Below the pieces are notes generated by a model. It worked only from the letters and a program-made list of their open reading frames with translations, was not told the origin of the DNA and made no database searches. From Naegleria gruberi (lineage: Eukaryota), in the NCBI GenBank assembly GCA_000004985.1, contig GG738870.1: a DNA stretch of 64,000 bases. The stretch is one strand, 5' to 3'. Of the stretch, positions 36,581 to 62,765 are shown piece by piece. Position numbers and translations under genes: made by a program. How positions within the stretch are numbered: position 1 is the stretch's first letter; every line of letters starts with the position of its first letter.

Positions 36581-36651
36581 AGGGAGATAGTTCAGTGGTA
36601 GAACATGGGATTGTGGTTCCTAAGATCAGGGTTCGATTCCCTGTCTTCCTA
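36581..36651 (+). tRNA. tRNA-His (anticodon GTG)
   Basis: The sequence folds as a cloverleaf: acceptor AGGGAGA/TCTTCCT, D arm GTTC/GAAC, anticodon stem TGGGA/TCCTA with loop TTGTGGT (GTG at 34-36), T arm CAGGG-TTCGATT-CCCTG, and discriminator A. There is no genomically encoded G-1 (A at -1). A T5 run starts 5 nt downstream. Confidence 0.9.
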
Positions 36652-36655
36652 CACC

Positions 36656-41407: not shown

Positions 41408-41478
41408 GTAGGAAGACAGGGAATCGAACCCTGATCTTAGGAACCACAATCCCATGTTCTACCACTGAACTATCTCCC
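41408..41478 (-). tRNA. tRNA-His (anticodon GTG), inverted identical copy
   Basis: This is the exact reverse complement of 36581..36651, with all 71 positions identical. The -1 position is again A, and a T6 run follows on the minus strand at 41399..41404. Confidence 0.9.
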
Positions 41479-41640
41479 TTCATGTTATAGAGAATCCAAG
41501 CCAAGCATTGATGATAATAAAATAATGATTAAAAATAGATTCGAAAAAAATTATTCATACAAGACGAAGATCACATACAAAAAATTACCGTCATCAAGAT
41601 AATATTTAGGGCTGAATAATTATTAACTTAAATTTTAACA

Positions 41641-53591: not shown

Positions 53592-54254
53592 TTAAAAGAA
53601 ATCATCCAAATCTTTAGATTCTTCAACTTCGTCACCACCATCTCCGAAAAAGTCATCATTATAGTTGCTATGGGCTTTCTTCTTATTATTACTGGAGAAG
53701 AGTGAATCATACGATTTGGCTTCAGCTTCCTTCTTTCTTCTTTCTAATTCTTCCTTTTCCTTCTTTGCTCTTTCTTTTGATTCACGTTTTTGCATTTCTC
53801 TGAAATTCTTGTCTCTTTGCATCTTTTCCTTTTCAAAATCTACTTGTTTTTCAACTTGAGTCTTGTTTAATCTGTTACAGATTTCCTTATTCTTTTGAAT
53901 GACAACGTGACGAACAGCCTTTCTGTCAAAGAATCCAACTTCACCAGTGTCCATGTCACCTGTTTTTTTAAGATTTGAAGCCATTGTATAAACTACTTTG
54001 ACTTGTGGTTCCTTTTTACCTTGAATTGAATTGTATTTTGTAAGTTGAGACAAGTCTTCAATAACTTCCTTCGGAATATCGTTGATTGTCTGTCCTGTAT
54101 GTAAACGTAAATAAACGTGAGCAGAACTGAATCCGTCAACGTGGAACCAGACATCTTCTGGGAATGAATACTTGATGAGATCTTCATTTTCAAACTTGTC
54201 TCTACCCATGTAAACTACATAGGAAGGATCAATACAGGTAAAGTAAAAGACCAT
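53592..54254 (-). CDS. CCDC25: CCDC25/Jlp2-family protein (NFACT-R_1/DUF814 domain plus charged coiled-coil tail)
   Basis: This is a single ORF with its ATG at 54254. The N-terminus MVFYFTCIDPSYVVYMGRDKFENEDLIKYSFPEDVWFHVDGFSSAHVYLRL is the conserved CCDC25 domain. Confidence 0.85.
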   Translation of the reverse strand: MVFYFTCIDPSYVVYMGRDKFENEDLIKYSFPEDVWFHVDGFSSAHVYLRLHTGQTINDIPKEVIEDLSQLTKYNSIQGKKEPQVKVVYTMASNLKKTGDMDTGEVGFFDRKAVRHVVIQKNKEICNRLNKTQVEKQVDFEKEKMQRDKNFREMQKRESKERAKKEKEELERRKKEAEAKSYDSLFSSNNKKKAHSNYNDDFFGDGGDEVEESKDLDDFF

Positions 54255-54302
54255 TTTTTTTTAAATTTCAAAATTTAATTAATTGATGAATTTAAATTTA
54301 GA

Positions 54303-55970
54303 TTAATGTTTATTTTCTAATTTTTGTTCCAAAGCTTGAATTCTTTCTAAACAAAATTCAATCAATTGGTCTTGTCTTTGAATGGTTTCTTCCAAGTTTT
54401 CAACTTTCTTATTTAAAATTTTGATAATTTCAGAGTTGACAGCTGTGGAATTCTCAACATTAATTGTTTGATCCAAATGTTTTCTTTCAATTGAGTGAAT
54501 AATATCTTCATCTTTAGCTAAATCTATTGGTGTTTTACCTTGAGCATTTTTCAATTGAATATTTGCACCAGCGTCAAGTAAAGCAGTTGTAATTTTCTTC
54601 TTGAAATCGAGTTCTTCATCTGTCGTTGCTGGTAGAACTGCAATATGAAGAGCAGAGTTGCCTTCTTTATCAACTGAGTTTACAAATTCAGGAAACATTT
54701 TGACAATGAAATAAACAACTGATTCTCTCATATTTTCCACAGCAACATGTAGAGGTTGTCTATTCTTATTATCAACATTCTTTTCATCAATATTAAGGGT
54801 AAACGGAGGATTTAACAACACTTTCAATAATTCTATCTGACCTCCAGCTGCAGCCCAATAAACACAAAATGATTTCTGAATATTAATTCCCTTTGATTGG
54901 AAAAAAGAAACCATTTCCAAGTCTCCCAGATATGATGCAAGCGCTATAACATTCATGTTAACCTTTCCAAATTTCTTATGTTTGAATTTTCTGTTCATAT
55001 CAGCATTCTTGTTGATTAAGAAAAGAATCATTTCCTTTTGCTTATTCATGACAGCCTCACATAATGGGGTCCAGTTCTGATAATGAGTGGAGAAAAAACA
55101 AGCATCAATGTAAGCTCCTTTTTGCAACAGATAATTTACAAGTACAGATGAACCGTGGCGAACAGCAAGGTGAAGGGAAGTCTTTATATTTGTTACTGAA
55201 ATCAAAGAAACCAAAATACTTACTTCATGTTCACTCAATGGTTGTAAAATATCCACACCTAACATGTTCAATAATTTTAGATAATCCAAATTACTATTAA
55301 TGGCACATTTTATGACACAATTAAGGATCGTTTCTTTAAATTCTTTTGCAACAATCCAAGCATCAAAATTATCTGCCTTCTCAATGGCATTAGCAACAAA
55401 GTATTCACTAATATAACTATCGTACAAAATATTAATACAATCATAAAGATTAGTGTGACAGACCATGTAGTGAAAAGGAGCTGTAATCATGTTATCGTTA
55501 ATGAACAATGAATAAAACATACTCAGTCCATTTGAATCTTTAAGCTTCAAAAACTCATCCAAAAATTTCAATTCTTTCATCTTCTCAAACACAAAGCTCC
55601 CGTTAGAAAAATCAAGGTCATTTGAACCTTTATGTTTGAAACCATATTGAATGGCCAAGTGAAGACAATTTCTATTCTCCAAACAAAGATGAGGTCCTTT
55701 TAATTGACTTGCATTGGAAGTTGTAAATAACAGTTTTAGTCTGGAAACGGAACCTTCTTTCAATGAAAACACAAACTCTTTCAATACATCCGATTCAAAA
55801 GTTTTTGATTTTATATCTTCCATTATGCTTGCATTCCTCTTTCTTCCTAATTCCTTTTCACTCTCGTCTTTGACATGAAGACCTTCATTCATCTTCATGA
55901 TTGTATTTTTCCTTAATACACTTTGCCTCCTTGAAGGAGAAATAGGAAGCTGAGGTAATGGCTTGCTCAT
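54303..55970 (-). CDS. Ankyrin-repeat protein with a C-terminal coiled coil
   Basis: This is a single ORF with its ATG at 55970. It has at least six ANK repeats (for example TSLHLAVRHGSSVLVNYLLQKGAYIDA and RQPLHVAVENMRESVVYFIV) and a helical tail. Confidence 0.75.
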   Translation of the reverse strand: MSKPLPQLPISPSRRQSVLRKNTIMKMNEGLHVKDESEKELGRKRNASIMEDIKSKTFESDVLKEFVFSLKEGSVSRLKLLFTTSNASQLKGPHLCLENRNCLHLAIQYGFKHKGSNDLDFSNGSFVFEKMKELKFLDEFLKLKDSNGLSMFYSLFINDNMITAPFHYMVCHTNLYDCINILYDSYISEYFVANAIEKADNFDAWIVAKEFKETILNCVIKCAINSNLDYLKLLNMLGVDILQPLSEHEVSILVSLISVTNIKTSLHLAVRHGSSVLVNYLLQKGAYIDACFFSTHYQNWTPLCEAVMNKQKEMILFLINKNADMNRKFKHKKFGKVNMNVIALASYLGDLEMVSFFQSKGINIQKSFCVYWAAAGGQIELLKVLLNPPFTLNIDEKNVDNKNRQPLHVAVENMRESVVYFIVKMFPEFVNSVDKEGNSALHIAVLPATTDEELDFKKKITTALLDAGANIQLKNAQGKTPIDLAKDEDIIHSIERKHLDQTINVENSTAVNSEIIKILNKKVENLEETIQRQDQLIEFCLERIQALEQKLENKH

Positions 55971-55987
55971 TTTTTTAATAAGACACT

Positions 55988-56164
55988 ATGCTACTGGGAT
56001 GTGTTATCATTACAGCAATATTAATAAAAATGAATAGAGGATGTATGGATGTTAACAGTTTAGTAGTTGGAGGAGTACAGGATGTAAAAGACAATGTGGT
56101 CGGAGGATTCCACACTTTGAATAAGGCTACATCAATTTTGAAGAGAACACTTATCACCTGTTGA
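55988..56164 (+). CDS. Stand-alone truncated paralog of the Gly/Val-rich 11-mer module (58 aa), possibly a pseudogene
   Basis: There is an ATG-initiated 58-codon ORF reading MLLGCVIITAILIKMNRGCMDVNSLVVGGVQDVKDNVVGGFHTLNKATSILKRTLITC*. About 85% of nucleotides match 60342..60545 of the Exo84-like gene's first exon, but it has one 33-bp repeat unit instead of three and ends at a TGA where the other copy continues. It is below the 60-aa track threshold. The minus ORF 55975..56172 is its antisense. Confidence 0.45.
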   Translation: MLLGCVIITAILIKMNRGCMDVNSLVVGGVQDVKDNVVGGFHTLNKATSILKRTLITC

Positions 56165-56584
56165 TCATTCAATCCTTTGAATATGTTTACTTTTCCATTG
56201 ACAGAATTTCACATTATTTGTAGATTTGAATTCAGCTTCTTCCTCCTGTTTTTCAGTTAGTAGTTTTACATTAATTTATAATTCATTCTTTGTATTTGTT
56301 TACACAAGAGAATAGTTAATAATAAGAATAGACAAAAGATTCTTGAATGTCCAAGTTTTTACAATGATAAAATGGCCAAACACAACCCTAACTACCGATA
56401 GAAATAAAAAATCAATCTCATTCATGACGGTTGAAATATGAGAATGACAGTTTACAATGATTTTGAAACTAAAATGATTGGATGATCATAGACTTATTGT
56501 ATTGACGTAGAGAATTCACAACCCATACAAACTCTTAAAAGTGTTTGGTCTAAGAGAAAGAAAGGTATTAAAAAAAACATAACA

Positions 56585-57868
56585 ATGAAAGTTTCAAATT
56601 TATTATTCATTTGTCTATTCCTATTCACTTTTGCTTACAAGTTGACTGTTGCCTCTAGCACTTCCAACATGCTACAACCAGTCAATTTATTTCAGAAGAG
56701 AACATCTCAAGCAGTGTGCACATGTCCTAGATGTCCAGACAAAATTAACATCAACAATTTCTTGTTCTCAACTGAGGTGAATTGTCCCACCAAGTGTCCC
56801 ACAGGCTATTACGTCAATGGAATGGATCTCTTGATTTCACCATTTAATGACTACCATACCTACATTATTGAAACTACATCCACTGACACTTCAAACAAAA
56901 TTAATGACTTGTCAAAAGATCAAACCAGATACAATCTTGGAGATTGTTTCAGTGCCTCTACTTCCTTAAATCTTGATACCACTGATTACACTACCAAGAT
57001 TACATGTAAGAATGCCATTACTCAATGCTCAGTTCAAGTGAAAAATGTTTGTTTTTGCTCCAAATCCCCTTCAAAATTGGTTATTATTGCTCCTTCTCTT
57101 GTTGTGACTGGATCTAAATACACACCTGAAGTAAGAATTGTTGACAATGATGGAAATATAGTTCCAAGAAACTATCTCATTGAATTCATTTCACCTGGTC
57201 AATCCTATACTTCTATGGCATCAAATGGTATCATGAAAGTTAATGAACTTATTGCCCCAAGCTCTGGTACTGTTACATTAAGAGCTTCTATCAGTTCTCT
57301 TTCAGGTTCTGCTCCTTCATTGACTTCTGCTGAGTTTACTGTCACTGTCACTCAATCCTTATTCACATGTTATGGTGCTTCACCTTCCAACAGTTCTGTT
57401 TGTAGTGGTAAAGGAACATGTACTGCTCAAGATGTTTGCTCATGTTTCACAGGATACAGTGGTAGTAAATGTGAAACATTCTCCTCAACCACTCAAGTTT
57501 CCAGCATTAAACTCTCAGTTCCCTCCACTGTGAATAGTGGTTCTCAATTTACTGCAACTGTTTCAATGTTGGATTCAAGTGGAAGTACCATGAAATCAGG
57601 TTCAGGAACTATCACTTTGGATATTGTTGGTGCATCTTCTGATGTTACAATGGTTGGTGATAAGTCCAAAGTGGCAGGTGAAGGTGTTGCTTCATTCTCT
57701 GTTCAATTGTCAACATTGACATCAACTTCGATCTCTCTAAAGGCGAACTATCAAACACTTTCAGATACCAAATCAGTTAATGTGGATATATCCAGGACAT
57801 CTCAATGTGCTGCCATTTGGAGTTATCTTTTCACAATAACCTTTTTTGTAATTTTATTTATTATCTAA
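56585..57868 (+). CDS. Secreted Ser/Thr-rich cell-surface protein with an EGF-like Cys module and a C-terminal hydrophobic (GPI-type) tail
   Basis: This is a single ORF with a signal peptide (MKVSNLLFICLFLFTFAYKL). It has an EGF-like Cys pattern (CSGKGTCTAQDVCSCFTGYSGSKCE) and an N-terminal Cys-rich region (CTCPRCPDK...CPTKCPTGYY). Much of the rest is Ser/Thr-rich and likely O-glycosylated, and the last ~22 residues (AAIWSYLFTITFFVILFII) look like a GPI-anchor signal. Confidence 0.7.
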   Translation: MKVSNLLFICLFLFTFAYKLTVASSTSNMLQPVNLFQKRTSQAVCTCPRCPDKININNFLFSTEVNCPTKCPTGYYVNGMDLLISPFNDYHTYIIETTSTDTSNKINDLSKDQTRYNLGDCFSASTSLNLDTTDYTTKITCKNAITQCSVQVKNVCFCSKSPSKLVIIAPSLVVTGSKYTPEVRIVDNDGNIVPRNYLIEFISPGQSYTSMASNGIMKVNELIAPSSGTVTLRASISSLSGSAPSLTSAEFTVTVTQSLFTCYGASPSNSSVCSGKGTCTAQDVCSCFTGYSGSKCETFSSTTQVSSIKLSVPSTVNSGSQFTATVSMLDSSGSTMKSGSGTITLDIVGASSDVTMVGDKSKVAGEGVASFSVQLSTLTSTSISLKANYQTLSDTKSVNVDISRTSQCAAIWSYLFTITFFVILFII

Positions 57869-57922
57869 TAATAATAATATTGCATTAAATAAATTTAATA
57901 TTACAAAATTTAATTATTATAA

Positions 57923-58281
57923 ATGGATCAAGACTTCATTGACTCAAGTTATTTCTCAAATGATCTGACAAAGTCTAATAACATCAAGTCATGTATTAGA
58001 ATAGTGTTCAAGTAGGTAATACCAGTAGTATTTTACGTGAATTTTATCATGAGCTTCCAAAGAAACATTCTAAGGGAGGTCAATCTCTTGAAAGATTTGC
58101 TAGAAATAGAGAAATTGCCAAGAATGAATATCTAAAGATTATTGCAGAGAAGGCAAATTCTTTATTCGTATCGCCAACTTTGAATGCTCCAACTGTAGAT
58201 GCTATTATTCTTGCTGGATGTGCTGAATTGAAGAATGAATTACTTTCTCTCAAATCTGATTGTTTGGTAATAGTAAAATAG
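57923..58281 (+). pseudogene. Eukaryotic release factor eRF1 remnant (NIKS-region fragment plus middle-domain fragment), frame-broken and internally deleted
   Basis: A stop-free frame over 58000..58281 encodes NSVQVGNTSSILREFYHELPKKHSKGGQSLERFARNREIAKNEYLKIIAEKANSLFVSPTLNAPTVDAIILAGCAELKNELLSLKSDCLVIVK*. This aligns residue by residue with eRF1 domain 2 ([56 protein letters not shown]...[26 protein letters not shown]). A different frame over 57923..58015 encodes MDQDFIDSSYFSNDLTKSNNIKSCIRIVFK*, which resembles the NIKS loop region of domain 1. No canonical splice joins the two frames, and about 100 aa of eRF1 lying between them, plus the N- and C-terminal parts, are absent. Confidence 0.5.
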
Positions 58282-58302
58282 TAAAAAGTAACTAAGAGTG
58301 AT

Positions 58303-59398
58303 TTAGGTCAATTTGAACATGCCTTGAATTGCCTTGGCAGAGTAAGCTTCTTCCAAACTCTTCTTTTCTTCATCGGTTAATTGAATTTCCAATGCTTGCA
58401 CATTGAGTTCAATATTTACAGCTTTAGTGGCGCCAACAATTGGACAAGCAACACCTGGCTTGGAAAGCAACCAAGCAAGTGCAATTTGAGCAGGTGGTAC
58501 ATTTCTCTTCTTTGCAATTTCTGAAACTCTTCTCAATGTTTCTTTATCACCCTCTGTTAAATTTTCCTTAAATATATTTTGGAAATAATCAGAGGTAGCT
58601 CTCTTGGAATCAATTGCTTGTTCAGCATTGACAAATTCATGAGCACGAGCGAGCATTCCATTGGAAAGAGGTCCCCATGGAGTGAGAGAAACATGTTGGT
58701 CAACACATAATGGATTCATTTCTCTTTCTTCTTCTCTATAGATGAGATTGTGGAGATTTTGCATGGAAATGAATTTGGTCAATCCCTTCTTCTCAGCATA
58801 GTGTTGAGCTTTAGCAAATTGCCAAGCAAACATTGTGGAAGCACCAATGTATCTGACCTTTCCAGACTTGACTAAATCATGGAGTGTTTCCATAGTTTCT
58901 TCAATTGGAGTATTTTCATCCCAACGATGGATAATGTACAAATCAATGTCTATTCAATCAATCATTATTAATCAAATGAAATATTTCAGTAAACTTACAA
59001 TCGAGACCTAATCTTTGCAATGAATCTTCAACTGCATGCATAATGTGCTTTCTGGAGAGACCAAAAGTGTTTGGTTTCAACTTGCTAAAGTCCATTACCA
59101 TAGATTGTTCACCACTTCTGTCCACTGGAGCACAAACTTTGGTAGCCACAACAATTTCCTCTCTTGAAATGTTGAATTTCTTAATGAAATTTCCTAAAAT
59201 TCTTTCACTTTCTCCATTACTATAAACATTGGCAGTATCGAAAAAGTTAATTCCCAAATCCCATGCCTTCTTCAAAATGATCATTGATTCCTCTTCATTC
59301 AATACCCAAGGCATCCACTTGGAAGATCCAAAACTCATACAACCCAAACAAAGTTGAGAAACCTTCAAACCACTATTACCCAAATTGACGTATTTCAT
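58303..59398 (-). CDS. Aldo-keto reductase; 2 exons
   Basis: Exon 1 (58999..59398, ATG 59398) ends ...LQRLGLD at phase 1 on a GTAAGT donor. A 49-nt intron with a TAG acceptor gives exon 2 (58303..58949), which starts YIDLYIIHRWD and reconstitutes the AKR hallmark LGLDYIDLY. The family is conserved throughout the protein (GASTMFAWQFAKA, PWGPLSNG). Confidence 0.9.
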
Positions 59399-59511
59399 TG
59401 TTTCTTTAATATTTTTTCTCTATCAAACTATGAAGCTTATTCAATAAGAATTGAATTTGTTTTTTTTGTTTTTGAAATTGTTCTTCTTTATTGCCAGCGA
59501 ATTTAAGTAGG

Positions 59512-59613
59512 AAAATTTGTGCTCATATTTTCGCGAGCAGATTAATGTTTTGATGGTTTTGGATGGATATGATGATTTAAAATTGTGCTCACATTTTCAC
59601 GAGCAGATTAATG
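59512..59613 (+). repeat. Two roughly 35-bp direct repeats (AAAATT(T)GTGCTCAyATTTTCrCGAGCAGATTAATG) spaced 66 bp
   Basis: Copy A (59512..59547) and copy B (59578..59613) differ by two substitutions and one T indel. Each contains a small palindromic core (CTCGCGAG in A, CTCGTGAG in B). They lie in the roughly 360-bp region between the aldo-keto reductase ATG (minus, 59398) and tRNA-Met (59761). The track ORF 59517..59789 merely spans them. Confidence 0.7.
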
Positions 59614-59760
59614 ACTGTAGACATTTAAAAAAAGTGAATTCTTTTTGTAAATTGGTACAAGGTCAATCTGGTTTTGGATGTTATGTAATTCCTTTTGTAA
59701 GCACTCAAGCACTCACTTTGGACTTCAACAAGCATTCATACTTTTGGCTAATAATGTATC

Positions 59761-59833
59761 GGGGTCATGGCGCAGTCGGTAGCGCGTAGGTCTCATAATC
59801 CTAAGGTCGTGAGTTCGATCCTCACTGACCCCA
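59761..59833 (+). tRNA. Elongator tRNA-Met (anticodon CAT)
   Basis: The sequence GGGGTCATGGCGCAGTCGGTAGCGCGTAGGTCTCATAATCCTAAGGTCGTGAGTTCGATCCTCACTGACCCCA is near-identical in its D arm, anticodon arm and T arm to metazoan or fungal elongator tRNA-Met, with anticodon loop CTCATAA. A T5 run lies at 59836..59840. Confidence 0.9.
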
Positions 59834-59835
59834 AC

Positions 59836-59840
59836 TTTTT
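59836..59840 (+). terminator. Pol III T-run terminator for tRNA-Met
   Basis: TTTTT lies 2 nt after the tRNA 3' end. Confidence 0.55.
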
Positions 59841-60248
59841 GCTTTCAATTAGTCATATTTAAGAACCCTTATTGAACTTTCCACGAAGAGGATTCTGGAA
59901 CAACAAGGTGGAAATAGTATTAGATTTTTAAATTTATGCCTTCAAGATTGGTTTCAACATCATCTGTTAAATCTGTTAAACCACAAAAGAAAGATAAAAA
60001 CAAAGCCAGTAAATCCTGTGAGAAAGAAGCTCAAAACCAATAATGCCAAACTTCATACCAGCCCACAACAAAGCTAAAATCCAAATCCCACAACCAGCGA
60101 AAATAGTGCCTGAGCACGTGGTGATATTAGCCAACTCCAGAATTCGGTATTTTATTATAGAATAGAAACAGAAATATGAAGGAATTTTCAAATTAATGTT
60201 GCTAAATGGCTTTTAGGCTGTATTAAGACAGATGTTAAGAATTTGAGA

Positions 60249-62765
60249 ATGAAAGTTGGTGCCCTGTTACAAGGTGCTCAGTCGTCTTTTAACAGACATT
60301 ATCAATGGCTTGTTCTGTTTTTTAACGATAAAACATCTATGCTTCTTGGACGTGTTATTATTACAGCAACATTAATAAAAATGAATAGAGGATTTATAAC
60401 GGAAGGTGTACAGGATGTTAAAGGTTTAGTGGTCGGTGGTGTTCAGGATGTTAAAGGCTTAGTAGTTGGAGGAGTACAGGATGTAAAGGACAAGGTGGTT
60501 GGAGGATTCCACACTTTGAATAAGGCTACATCAATATTGAGGAGAAAAATTATTAGTGATGTTGGAAATGCTAAGGAACTAAATAAGAAGGTGATCAGTT
60601 ATTTTACAGGAAAAGAGAGTAGGTTGATGAAGAATATTATTTAATAATTAATAATTATAAATAATATTTTAAATAGAGGCTCTTGAACATCCTTCAACAA
60701 TTAATTTTGCATCAGATGAATTTGATCCTGAGGATTGTAGGTTATCATCAATGTTTAATAATTCTGATTTTTAGATACTGATACCTTATTCACAAAATCC
60801 GATTACAAACAAATTGAAAGCAATTGGCTTGCAGGATTATCTATTGAACAAACAAAAGCAAAGGAAAAATTACAAGAATTAGTTTCAGATAATTATATAC
60901 AATTCATTGATGCTTCAAAAGAGGTTTCAAGTTTTATGGATGTTGATTTGATTGAAATTGGTAATCTTGTAACTTCTATGAAAAATGTTATTTCAGACAT
61001 TGACTCAGTTGATTTGACTTTGGATTATAGATGTTTGTACCCAACTTTTAAAAGTGTTGATGTTGAGGCTTTAAGAGAAGTTGAATATACAATGCTACCA
61101 GAATTGGAAATGATAATTTCTCAAAGACTATTTCACAAAGCAGCAGAATTGGTTGAATTAATAGATAAAAAACTAGTGTTGGAAGATGATATCAAAATGG
61201 AAAAAGACTACAGAGCGTCACTTCAACAATTGAAAAAGAAATTCTACCAAAAAAGAATTGAACTCAGTGAATCTGTTTCTGAGTCGGTCAAAAGTGGCCT
61301 TTCCAGTAATAAGGATGTTAAATTATTGGAAAAAATTTCAGGAACAGAGATTGCTATTACAACTTATCTAAAAGGAAAAAAGGTTAGAATTAAGAATATT
61401 CTTACAAAGATAGAATGCAGAGGAAATGTTGAGGACTACACAAAAACAGCCTCCAAACATGTTTTCAAGATGATTGAAGTAGTTTGTGCGGAGTTTAGAG
61501 AGTTATTTACTGATGATACAAATACCTCTTTTTTTATTCAGTGGTCATTTGAGGTGTTAGAAAAATTAGTCTCCACTGTCAAAGTTCAAATATTAGGTCA
61601 ACAATGTTTTGAAACCACATCTAACAGTATCAATGTTATCATTAAGAAGGCTCAACAGTTAGAAAAGATGGGTATCACAGTATCTTTCTACATACATAAA
61701 CTGTTGTTACCTGATGTTGAGAAAACAATGAGACAACGATGTATTGAATTAAGAGAGGAGATATTTAGAATAGCTTGTTCTGAATTATGGAATTACAAAA
61801 ATGTTCCCTGCGATTTATTTGCTGTTGCCCTTCCAGATGTTGTAAAGCAATTGAAGGTGGGGCAAAGTTGCCTTGTATTTGTGAATAGTATTCGTACTTT
61901 TATTATTAATTGTAGTTTAATAGTTTCCTCATATGTAAGTAATCACATACCAATATCTTACACCGTCAAGTCTTTCAATATTGTAAATATGTGTGTCACA
62001 GAACTCTTTGAGACTACCTTATCAAAATATTATGAGATTGGTTTGTCAAAAACCATTAGTGAGAAACAATTCTTTGTAATTTTATCAAGTTCAAGGTTTA
62101 TCTTACAAGGAATGTTGGAGGAGGTTTCAGAGATGTTAAAGGTTTGTTCTTGTAAACATATTTTCTCTTTAACATTTGATTAGTTATTATTTGATAAGAA
62201 TTTACCAGTAGAAATTACAATTCTTAAATCTAAAATATTTGGTTTTGATTCAAGATTGTTAGAGAAATATTGTGAGAACAAAGCTTTCAATTTAGTAGAT
62301 GAAAAAATAGGATGGAATCACAGCTACATTGCTCAAGAAATATCATCTGTAACGAGTGTCAGCAAATTCTTTGCTCAGGTCATCTCATACTTTGATAAAT
62401 TATCGAATCATATAGCTTCATCTTTTGACAAGGATTCTATCCCAATAATGAGGCTTTTCATTAAATATACGGTAGAATATCTTACTGACAAGAGTAATGC
62501 AATGACAAGCATGATTGAGGATACAAAAGAATCAGCAAAGAAACATAAGGTTAATCAGATTATTCTTGATCTGAGCTACTTTAAACAACAATTATCAAGC
62601 AGAGATTTTATTTCAGAGGAAGTAAGTATTGTTTTAATCATAATTATTTACCCATGATAGGATGAGGATACGATTATATCATATATTGATTTCATAAGAG
62701 ATTTAAACCATGGATCAGAGAGTGTGCTCTCTAATCGAGCAATTGAAGAGATACTTAATAAATAA
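60249..62765 (+). CDS. Exo84/Vps51-family vesicle-tethering-complex subunit with an unusual Gly/Val-rich 11-mer-repeat N-terminal exon; 5 exons
   Basis: The proposed exons are 60249..60618, 60677..60740, 60821..62141, 62184..62621 and 62661..62765 (stop TAA 62763-62765). The track ORF starts at TTG 60243; in-frame ATGs at 60249 and 60342 are alternative starts. Exon 1 ends at phase 1 on a GTAGGT donor, with a 58-nt intron and TAG acceptor, and exon 2 has a matching phase 1. Introns of 80 nt (GT...AAG), 42 nt (GTTTGT...TAG) and 39 nt (GTAAGT...TAG) follow. Exon 2 encodes ...NFASDEFDPEDC, the Vps51/Dor1-type FDPE motif, and exon 3 encodes NWLAGLSIEQTKAKEKLQELVSDNYIQFIDASKEV followed by ISQRLFHKAAELVELIDKKL, which resembles Exo84's IAQRDFEGAVDLLDKLN. 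The rest is an alpha-helical bundle. Confidence 0.55.
60402..60500 (+). repeat. Coding 33-bp tandem repeat, 3 units (GVQDVKGLVVG 11-mers)
   Basis: The units are 60402..60434, 60435..60467 and 60468..60500, with about 80% pairwise identity. They encode EGVQDVKGLVV / GGVQDVKGLVV / GGVQDVKDKVV, and the paralog at 55988..56164 has a single unit. Confidence 0.85.

Follow-up and report, generated by a model that had tools for sequence, protein, structure and literature searches.

In its canonical form, the exocyst subunit Exo84 has a PH domain that interacts with lipids, and N-terminal helices act in the assembly of the exocyst (PMC6784791). Perilipins, alpha-synuclein and apolipoproteins have 11-residue-repeat helices whose folding takes place on lipid surfaces (PMC5889406, PMC4807253); in the case of the weakly hydrophobic helix of Plin4, 66 residues were reported to be insufficient for targeting (PMC5889406). 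Here, we present an analysis of a locus in Naegleria gruberi at which an Exo84 gene begins with an exon of tandem 11-residue repeats. The locus lies in a stretch of 64,000 nucleotides of contig GG738870.1 (assembly GCA_000004985.1), which we refer to as the window, to which all N. gruberi coordinates refer and which has a G+C content of 33%. Six of its long ORFs are identical to RefSeq proteins of N. gruberi NEG-M, which all belong to a single scaffold of 418,085 bp. The analysis followed up an earlier note, made from this sequence alone, which had described a Gly/Val-rich repeat module spliced onto a tethering gene and duplicated upstream as a truncated open reading frame (ORF). As a whole, we consider it likely that the module encoded by exon 1 is an ancestral part of Exo84 in Naegleria and a probable amphipathic helix, and that the upstream duplicate, here referred to as copy A, is a dead fragment of the N. 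gruberi lineage.

The Exo84 gene and its repeat-bearing first exon

The gene at 60381-62765 (+) encodes Exo84. Its product matches the Pfam family Exo84_C (PF16528; E=4.5e-18, 66 bits against a cut-off of 32), the C-terminal helical domain of Exo84, as well as VPS51_Exo84_N (PF08700; E=7.6e-7, 29.6 bits against a cut-off of 24.2), the N-terminal assembly helix, and the yeast Exo84 C-terminal domain (PDB 2d2s) aligned to residues 212-410 (E=4.5e-4). The gene had been described as Exo84/Vps51-like; based on the Exo84_C match, only the first of the two names applies. It consists of six exons separated by tiny introns of 36-58 nt, and the spliced frame is uninterrupted when 60249-60618, 60677-60736 and 60775 onward are joined. 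The features of the gene are as follows:

60381..60618, + strand: Exo84 exon 1, from the probable ATG; ends in phase 1 (N. fowleri homology, codon score, substitution pattern, start context)
60405..60503, + strand: array of three in-register 33-bp units (60405-60437, 60438-60470, 60471-60503), each encoding one 11-residue repeat (repeat search)
60619..60676, + strand: intron 1, 58 nt, GTAGGT...TAG; the N. fowleri intron shares its codon position and phase
60677..60736, + strand: micro-exon 2, 60 nt, in phase 1 at either end and lacking an in-frame ATG; encodes (K)ALEHPSTINFASDEFDPED(Y); conserved in N. fowleri
60737..60774, + strand: intron 2, 38 nt, GTAGGT...TAG
60775..61934, + strand: Exo84 exon 3, remainder of VPS51_Exo84_N plus Exo84_C
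61935..61970, + strand: intron 3, 36 nt, in frame, GTAAGT...AAG; a 12-residue "insertion" relative to N. fowleri, which has a 45-nt GTAAGT intron at exactly that site
61971..62141, + strand: Exo84 exon 4
62142..62183, + strand: intron 4, 42 nt, GTTTGT...TAG
62184..62621, + strand: Exo84 exon 5
62622..62660, + strand: intron 5, 39 nt, GTAAGT...TAG
62661..62765, + strand: Exo84 exon 6, with the stop codon TAA at 62763-62765

The module encoded by exon 1 comprises 79 residues and reads MNRGFITE-(GVQDVKGLVVG)x2-GVQDVKDKVVG-GFHTLNKATSILRRKIISDVGNAKELNKKVISYFTGKE. Tandem Repeats Finder detected a 33-bp period at 60404-60506 (2.6-3.1 copies, score 123) and, together with the repeat search, thereby bears out the three tandem 33-bp units that had been read from the sequence. 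The module did not match any Pfam family, and phmmer found no PDB relative of the module alone. A two-species profile matched alpha-synuclein at E=0.24 only, and no sequence homology of the module to perilipin, synuclein or apolipoprotein was detected in the Pfam, PDB, profile and protein searches. A word-indexed search of 5.8 billion proteins with the module gave zero matches at E<=10. An exhaustive phmmer search of 1.84 billion representative proteins later found the exon 1 ORF of N. fowleri (65% identical, E=1e-16), and we therefore regard the empty word-indexed result as a false negative, probably caused by composition filtering, and negatives from word-indexed searches as untrustworthy for repeat-rich queries. 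The remaining phmmer matches were rejected as homologues because they are unrelated low-complexity repeat proteins. Similarly, a 25-nt likeness to the repeat unit at 62122-62145 (E=0.065) is taken as chance.

The relation of the module to Exo84 is best followed in N. fowleri. With Exo84 as the query, the search of 5.8 billion proteins returned a sole homologue, N. fowleri FDP41_013256 (XP_044565486.1/KAF0980773.1; E=1e-199, about 49-52% identity, 92% of the query covered), which has a second record from an independent annotation, CAG4715816.1 (735 residues). A wider heterolobosean Exo84 was not found, as single-sequence and two-species profile searches both gave N. fowleri only. The N-terminus of FDP41_013256 is MSKELIAEGVQDVKELFAEGVQDVKDKFVGGINMMNKATNMLKKKIKSEVGIAKEVNKKVISIFTGRE, i.e. 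the module with two units, and runs straight on into Exo84; XP_044565486 and CAG4715816 both start with MSKELIAEGVQDVKELFAEGVQDVKDKFVGGINMMNKAT followed by Exo84. The module on Exo84 is thus already in public N. fowleri protein records, though undescribed. The N. gruberi and N. fowleri modules share 65% identity over 66 residues, and both have a tandem 11-residue periodicity, the N. gruberi module with three units and that of N. fowleri with two. In both species, the order of genes is NFACT-R (minus strand), Exo84 and FAM161.

The exon structure around the junction is conserved as well. As the earlier note had read it, exon 1 ends in phase 1 at 60618 on a GTAGGT donor, the 58-nt intron ends in TAG, and the next exon lacks an ATG. 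The donor of the N. fowleri exon 1 (GTAAGT) has the identical codon position and the identical phase 1. Reading through past the donor gives SRLMKNII* in N. gruberi and SK* in N. fowleri, unrelated tails as expected of intron sequence. The Pfam match to VPS51_Exo84_N begins within the micro-exon, whose N. fowleri counterpart (L001 10256-10315; VFQX01000017.1) also has 60 nt and no in-frame ATG and is carried by CAG4715816.1 (KTLEHPSTINFSDDDFYPEEY). Moreover, between the two species, exon 1 has a ratio of the proportions of nonsynonymous and synonymous differences (pN/pS) of 0.28 at a pS of 0.79 and, therefore, evolves like coding sequence; its codon score of 0.34 exceeds those of all 112 spurious open stretches sampled from the window. 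From these comparisons, the case that the 60618/60677 splice joins the module to Exo84 is strong, also in view of the two N. fowleri models that join both parts. Because the module is already the Exo84 N-terminus in N. fowleri, it predates the split of the two species and, judged by sequence comparison, belonged to Exo84 before they diverged. The suggested exon shuffling onto Exo84 is thus not supported.

Two details of the original description did not hold. GTAGGT, thought to be a donor used repeatedly in this genome, occurs 14 times in the window against 11.2 expected (19 of 100 shuffles reach 14), and among the six mapped introns, five in Exo84 and one in a reductase gene, it is the donor only of Exo84 introns 1 and 2. 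The tethering motif FDPEDC reads FDPEDY after splicing; its C came from reading into the second GTAGGT donor.

Two observations concern gene models. Intron 3 (61935-61970) is detectable only by means of N. fowleri, and an ORF-based reading would retain 12 extra residues. In N. fowleri, the RefSeq model FDP41_013256 omits the conserved 60-nt micro-exon that encodes the start of VPS51_Exo84_N, while CAG4715816.1 keeps it. This omission is likely an annotation error; because it preserves the frame, it could possibly also reflect an alternative isoform.

The translation start and the upstream duplicate

Translation of Exo84 most likely starts at ATG 60381 (MNRGFITEGVQDVK), as judged from alignment and start context. 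Its counterpart in the alignment is the start codon of N. fowleri Exo84 (MSKELIAEGVQDVK), with an in-frame TAA two codons ahead of it. In the window, the start codon follows AAAA(A) in five of seven annotated genes; the context of 60381, taaaaATGa, fits this pattern and those of the in-frame ATGs at 60249 and 60339 do not. With ATG 60381 as the likely start, the hydrophobic stretch VIITATLIKMNRGF (VIITATLIK) falls upstream of it and is probably 5' leader and outside the protein. It had been taken for a helix of the protein; nowhere in the N. fowleri locus is there a counterpart of the upstream peptide. The relevant segments are as follows:

60180..60380, + strand: 67-codon open stretch in the frame of exon 1, with ATGs at 60249 and 60339; probably 5' leader or promoter
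60304..60553, + strand: copy B, the part of the parent gene to which copy A corresponds
55957..56164, + strand: copy A, a partial duplicate (~200 bp) of the Exo84 5' end; homology spans 55957-56154

Copy A lies 4.3 kb upstream in the same orientation and comprises only the leader of the parent gene and the initial ~170 nt of its coding sequence. In a blastn search of the window with 60200-60700, it was recovered at E=6e-37 (108 nt, 90.7%) and E=2e-21 (55957-56046, 85%), and the window contains no third copy. Within the duplicate, 55986-56046 corresponds to 60337-60397 with 90% identity and 56047-56154 to 60446-60553 with 91%. Thus, the duplication over ~200 bp is real, with an identity of 85-91% instead of the uniform value of about 85% given previously. 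The ORF of copy A (55988-56164) encodes 58 residues, or 44 residues if read from ATG 56030, and ends at its own TGA (56162-56164), as had been described, 10 nt beyond the end of the homology (56154). In place of the single repeat unit reported for it, copy A has one full unit along with another that is partial or degenerate (56039-56104). Its repeat array falls short of that of copy B by 48 nt, and neither the last ~21 residues of the module nor exons 2-6 are present in copy A.

Copy A has no counterpart in the 22-kb N. fowleri locus, and pS between copies A and B is 0.23 compared with 0.79 between species. Therefore, copy A is a younger duplication that is specific to the N. gruberi lineage. 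Among eight amino acid differences that can be polarised by N. fowleri, six are derived in copy A, among them two changes of K to N, one of K to T and two new Cys. These comparisons suggest that the duplication ran from Exo84 to the fragment and not in reverse. As had been noticed, copy A lies next to the divergent start of the ankyrin-repeat gene: its ORF starts 18 nt from the ankyrin ATG (55970, minus strand), and, at its 5' edge (55957-55978), the duplicated segment extends into the ankyrin coding sequence on the opposite strand, of which it covers the first 14 nt. Because of this overlap, the leader and promoter of the ankyrin gene would lie within copy A. Of the two fates suggested for the copy, a separate mini-gene or a pseudogene, what we find is a truncated duplicate, and nothing shows a mini-gene. 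We consider it fairly likely that copy A is a dead fragment that now forms part of the ankyrin leader and promoter.

A further truncated gene piece lies in the same block. At 58000-58278 (+), between the genes for an EGF-like protein and an aldo-keto reductase, there is a fragment of eRF1 domain 2 (Pfam eRF1_2, E=2.5e-17, profile positions 19-93, i.e. 75 of 133), flanked by stops and unaccompanied by other eRF1 domains, and thus probably part of a pseudogene. Taking copy A together with this nearby piece, it seems that short gene fragments were copied into this intergenic block; insertion by templated repair and insertion with target duplication could both account for this.

The predicted helix and alternative readings

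AlphaFold2, run without an alignment, predicted residues 3-76 of the module as one helix with a mean predicted local distance difference test score (pLDDT) of 92. The module contains zero prolines and has a net charge of +5, and its basic residues are gathered in the conserved tail (net +5 in N. gruberi and +6 in N. fowleri). On a helix with 11 residues in three turns, unit positions 8, 1, 5, 9, 2 and 10 fall on one face (L, G, V, V, V and V in N. gruberi; L, G, V, F, V and A in N. fowleri) and positions 3, 7, 11 and 4 (Q, G/E, G/E and D) on the other; K6 marks the border of the two faces. For the module as a whole, the hydrophobic moment reaches its maximum at 98 degrees per residue (0.29; z=3.1; reached by 0.05% of shuffles), and for the N. 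fowleri module at 98-100 degrees. The repeat half and the tail half have moments of similar direction, at 114 and 81 degrees, respectively, in N. gruberi and at 122 and 61 degrees in N. fowleri. Based on these predictions, the module is probably a single long amphipathic helix with a periodicity of 11/3, and the earlier interpretation of the 11-residue period as an amphipathic helix fits the single AlphaFold helix and the moment of the module as a whole.

The module runs directly into the VPS51/Exo84 N-terminal assembly helix. No PH family matched the Exo84 protein in Pfam at E<=10. The spacing between VPS51_Exo84_N and Exo84_C is only ~30 residues in both Naegleria proteins and, thus, leaves no space for a PH domain. 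The full-length AlphaFold model of N. fowleri Exo84 is poor (pLDDT 42) and adds nothing on this point. We treat the missing PH domain as a variant architecture and not as a ground for excluding the gene from Exo84. We speculate that the module helix may lie on a membrane or another lipid surface and that it could give Naegleria Exo84 a lipid contact in place of the PH domain. By analogy with known lipid-surface helices, we regard such a replacement as a tentative idea, somewhat short of an even chance. We think it unlikely that the helix goes further and acts as a convergent membrane or curvature sensor of the synuclein/perilipin type, in which the number of repeats would tune affinity and copy A might supply a free competing peptide.

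Several points weigh against our reading. The junction rests on comparative evidence and the gene models of another species, and none of the protein searches returned a protein model for N. gruberi Exo84. If the repeat ORF were an independent small gene ending at TAA 60642-60644, with Exo84 starting elsewhere and the N. fowleri models wrongly fused, its own stop 8 codons past the donor would be accounted for, as would the 70-residue ORF that gene callers blind to splicing gave as the N. fowleri equivalent. We consider this very improbable, because the micro-exon and exon 3 hold the start of the Exo84 N-domain with no in-frame ATG in either species, intron 1 contains no alternative start exon, the donor kept its position and phase at a pS of ~0.8, the tails past it are unrelated, and two independent N. 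fowleri annotations join the module and Exo84. The open frame upstream of ATG 60381 also counts against our reading: its 67 codons are an outlier compared with 2-31 in the seven annotated genes, and its codon score is intermediate at 0.08-0.13 (mean of spurious ORFs, -0.09; mean of true coding sequence, 0.29), a level reached by just 7-9% of spurious open stretches. Together with the persistence of ATG 60339 in copy A, this would suit a start at ATG 60249 or 60339 and a protein that includes the hydrophobic segment(s). Such a start is unlikely, given that the frame is closed two codons ahead of the N. fowleri ATG and the upstream peptide has no counterpart there, that both upstream ATGs have a poor context compared with the AAAA-ATG of annotated genes, and that the codon score is at the 4th percentile of true coding windows; a hydrophobic N-terminus would also be odd for a cytosolic tethering subunit. 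As to copy A, its frame is still open, its length difference from copy B is in frame, and pN/pS between the copies is 0.40, i.e. under 1, though 9 synonymous and 12 nonsynonymous differences are too few to separate neutrality from constraint. Copy A also keeps both ATGs, the A-rich context of the second and the amphipathic moment, all of which would befit a functional mini-gene at 55988-56164 for a free amphipathic peptide of 44-58 residues. Against this are the loss of the conserved module end (VGNAKELNKKVISYFTGKE) with a stop shortly past the homology, the concentration of polarisable changes on the lineage of copy A, including the new Cys, the absence of an equivalent in the N. fowleri locus and of any homologous protein other than N. 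fowleri exon 1 among 1.84 billion representatives, the overlap with the start and leader of the ankyrin gene, and the eRF1 fragment nearby. We therefore find a functional mini-gene improbable and retain the reading of copy A as a dead duplicate.

The helix is open to objections as well. Its amphipathicity is moderate: neither half of the module alone gives more than a marginal signal (p about 0.05), and the repeat array of N. gruberi, taken by itself, has its peak at the 130-degree harmonic and not at 98; moreover, harmonics of 11 residues arise by construction from any repeated unit, and a helix predicted by AlphaFold from a single sequence is weak evidence. A different role is also conceivable, in which the helix is a protein-protein element, either a hendecad coiled coil that extends the exocyst assembly helix or a docking site for a Naegleria-specific partner. 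In line with this, the module adjoins the VPS51_Exo84_N assembly region, the hydrophobic unit positions 2, 5, 8 and 9 partly match the a/e/h core of a hendecad, AlphaFold predicts a stable helix even without lipid, and the Glu in the N. fowleri units in place of the Gly in N. gruberi makes for a more conventional soluble helix. However, the helix has a wide apolar face of about 5 in 11 residues, rich in Val and Gly, and a strongly basic tail (+5/+6), both of which are typical of lipid-surface helices (PMC5889406); in addition, no partner is known. We regard a protein-protein role as a real possibility, though one that we would not back over its negation. A contact of the helix with lipid, if true, would mean that a tethering complex has swapped a PH domain for a repeat-based amphipathic helix, and the two species, with two versus three units, would offer a small, tractable system for how repeat number sets membrane affinity.

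Gene neighbourhood and comparison with known systems

The genes that flank Exo84 and copy A are as follows:

53592..54254, - strand: NFACT-R (CCDC25-like) gene, XP_002676867; direct divergent neighbour of Exo84 in N. fowleri and a synteny anchor
54303..55970, - strand: ankyrin-repeat gene, XP_002676868
56585-57868: gene for an EGF-like secreted protein of 427 residues, XP_002676775
62838..63980, + strand: FAM161-like gene, downstream of Exo84 in both species; second synteny anchor

NFACT-R and Exo84 are spaced 725 bp apart in N. fowleri and about 6 kb apart in N. gruberi (53592-60380 versus L001 8621-10000). The extra ~6 kb of N. gruberi DNA comprise the ankyrin gene, copy A, the EGF-like gene, the eRF1 fragment, the aldo-keto reductase gene (with one intron) and a gene for the transfer RNA (tRNA) for Met. 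The NFACT-R/Exo84 interval is a lineage-specific insertion or a hotspot of rearrangement. An element resembling a long-terminal-repeat element, with ~200-bp direct repeats around 4.1 kb, was ruled out, because conserved coding sequence of Exo84 makes up the repeat and ordinary cellular genes (the EGF-like secreted protein, the aldo-keto reductase with its intron and tRNA-Met) fill the interior. Splicing of copy A into the EGF-like gene was also ruled out, because that gene is annotated with its own ATG and a hydrophobic, signal-peptide-like N-terminus.

Further features of the window include two 35-nt direct repeats at 59513-59547 and 59579-59613 (+; AAATTTGTGCTCATATTTTCGCGAGCAGATTAATG), which are 91% identical, 66 nt apart and located ~150-250 nt upstream of tRNA-Met (59761-59833). 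A minus-strand ORF of 71 codons (59976-60191) between tRNA-Met and Exo84 would encode a strongly hydrophobic product with no Pfam match. Two tRNA-His(GTG) genes are situated 4.8 kb apart in opposite orientation at 36581-36652 (+) and 41408-41479 (-).

The present analysis supplies a six-exon model of N. gruberi Exo84, including the 60-nt micro-exon that one N. fowleri annotation skips, and describes an N-terminal module, so far found only in Naegleria, on a core exocytosis factor. Copy A and the eRF1 fragment show that short gene pieces are copied into intergenic DNA here, which is relevant to annotation.

The closest system is Exo84 of N. fowleri, which has the same flanking genes, the same structure of exon 1, micro-exon and exon 3 with the same phases, and the N-terminal module followed by a basic tail. 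In contrast to N. gruberi, it has two 11-residue units instead of three, Glu instead of Gly at unit positions 7 and 11, and a frame that is closed upstream of the ATG, and its 22-kb locus contains no fragment like copy A. Exo84/EXOC8 of yeast and animals shares with the Naegleria proteins the VPS51_Exo84_N assembly helix and the Exo84_C helical domain, and the yeast domain that was crystallised on its own (2d2s) is the region that aligns with Naegleria residues 212-410; unlike these proteins, which have a PH domain, N. gruberi Exo84 has the 79-residue N-terminal repeat helix without a Pfam match. With the helices of perilipins, alpha-synuclein and apolipoproteins, the module has in common the 11-residue periodicity, tandem DNA units (33 bp here), a composition rich in Gly, Val and Lys and free of proline, a hydrophobic face that is continuous at ~98 degrees per residue and a positive net charge; unlike them, it comprises only ~7 hendecads, and there is no detectable homology. 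This resemblance would, accordingly, be read as a possible mode of action and not as membership of a family. Copy A resembles partial 5'-end gene duplicates and unprocessed pseudogene fragments in being truncated and ending just past the homology, and differs from them in that its frame is still open and both ATGs are present, and in that it borders on another gene, whose leader or promoter it probably provides. Altogether, what we find amounts to a modest, lineage-specific variation of a known protein together with an ordinary partial duplicate, and not a new kind of system.

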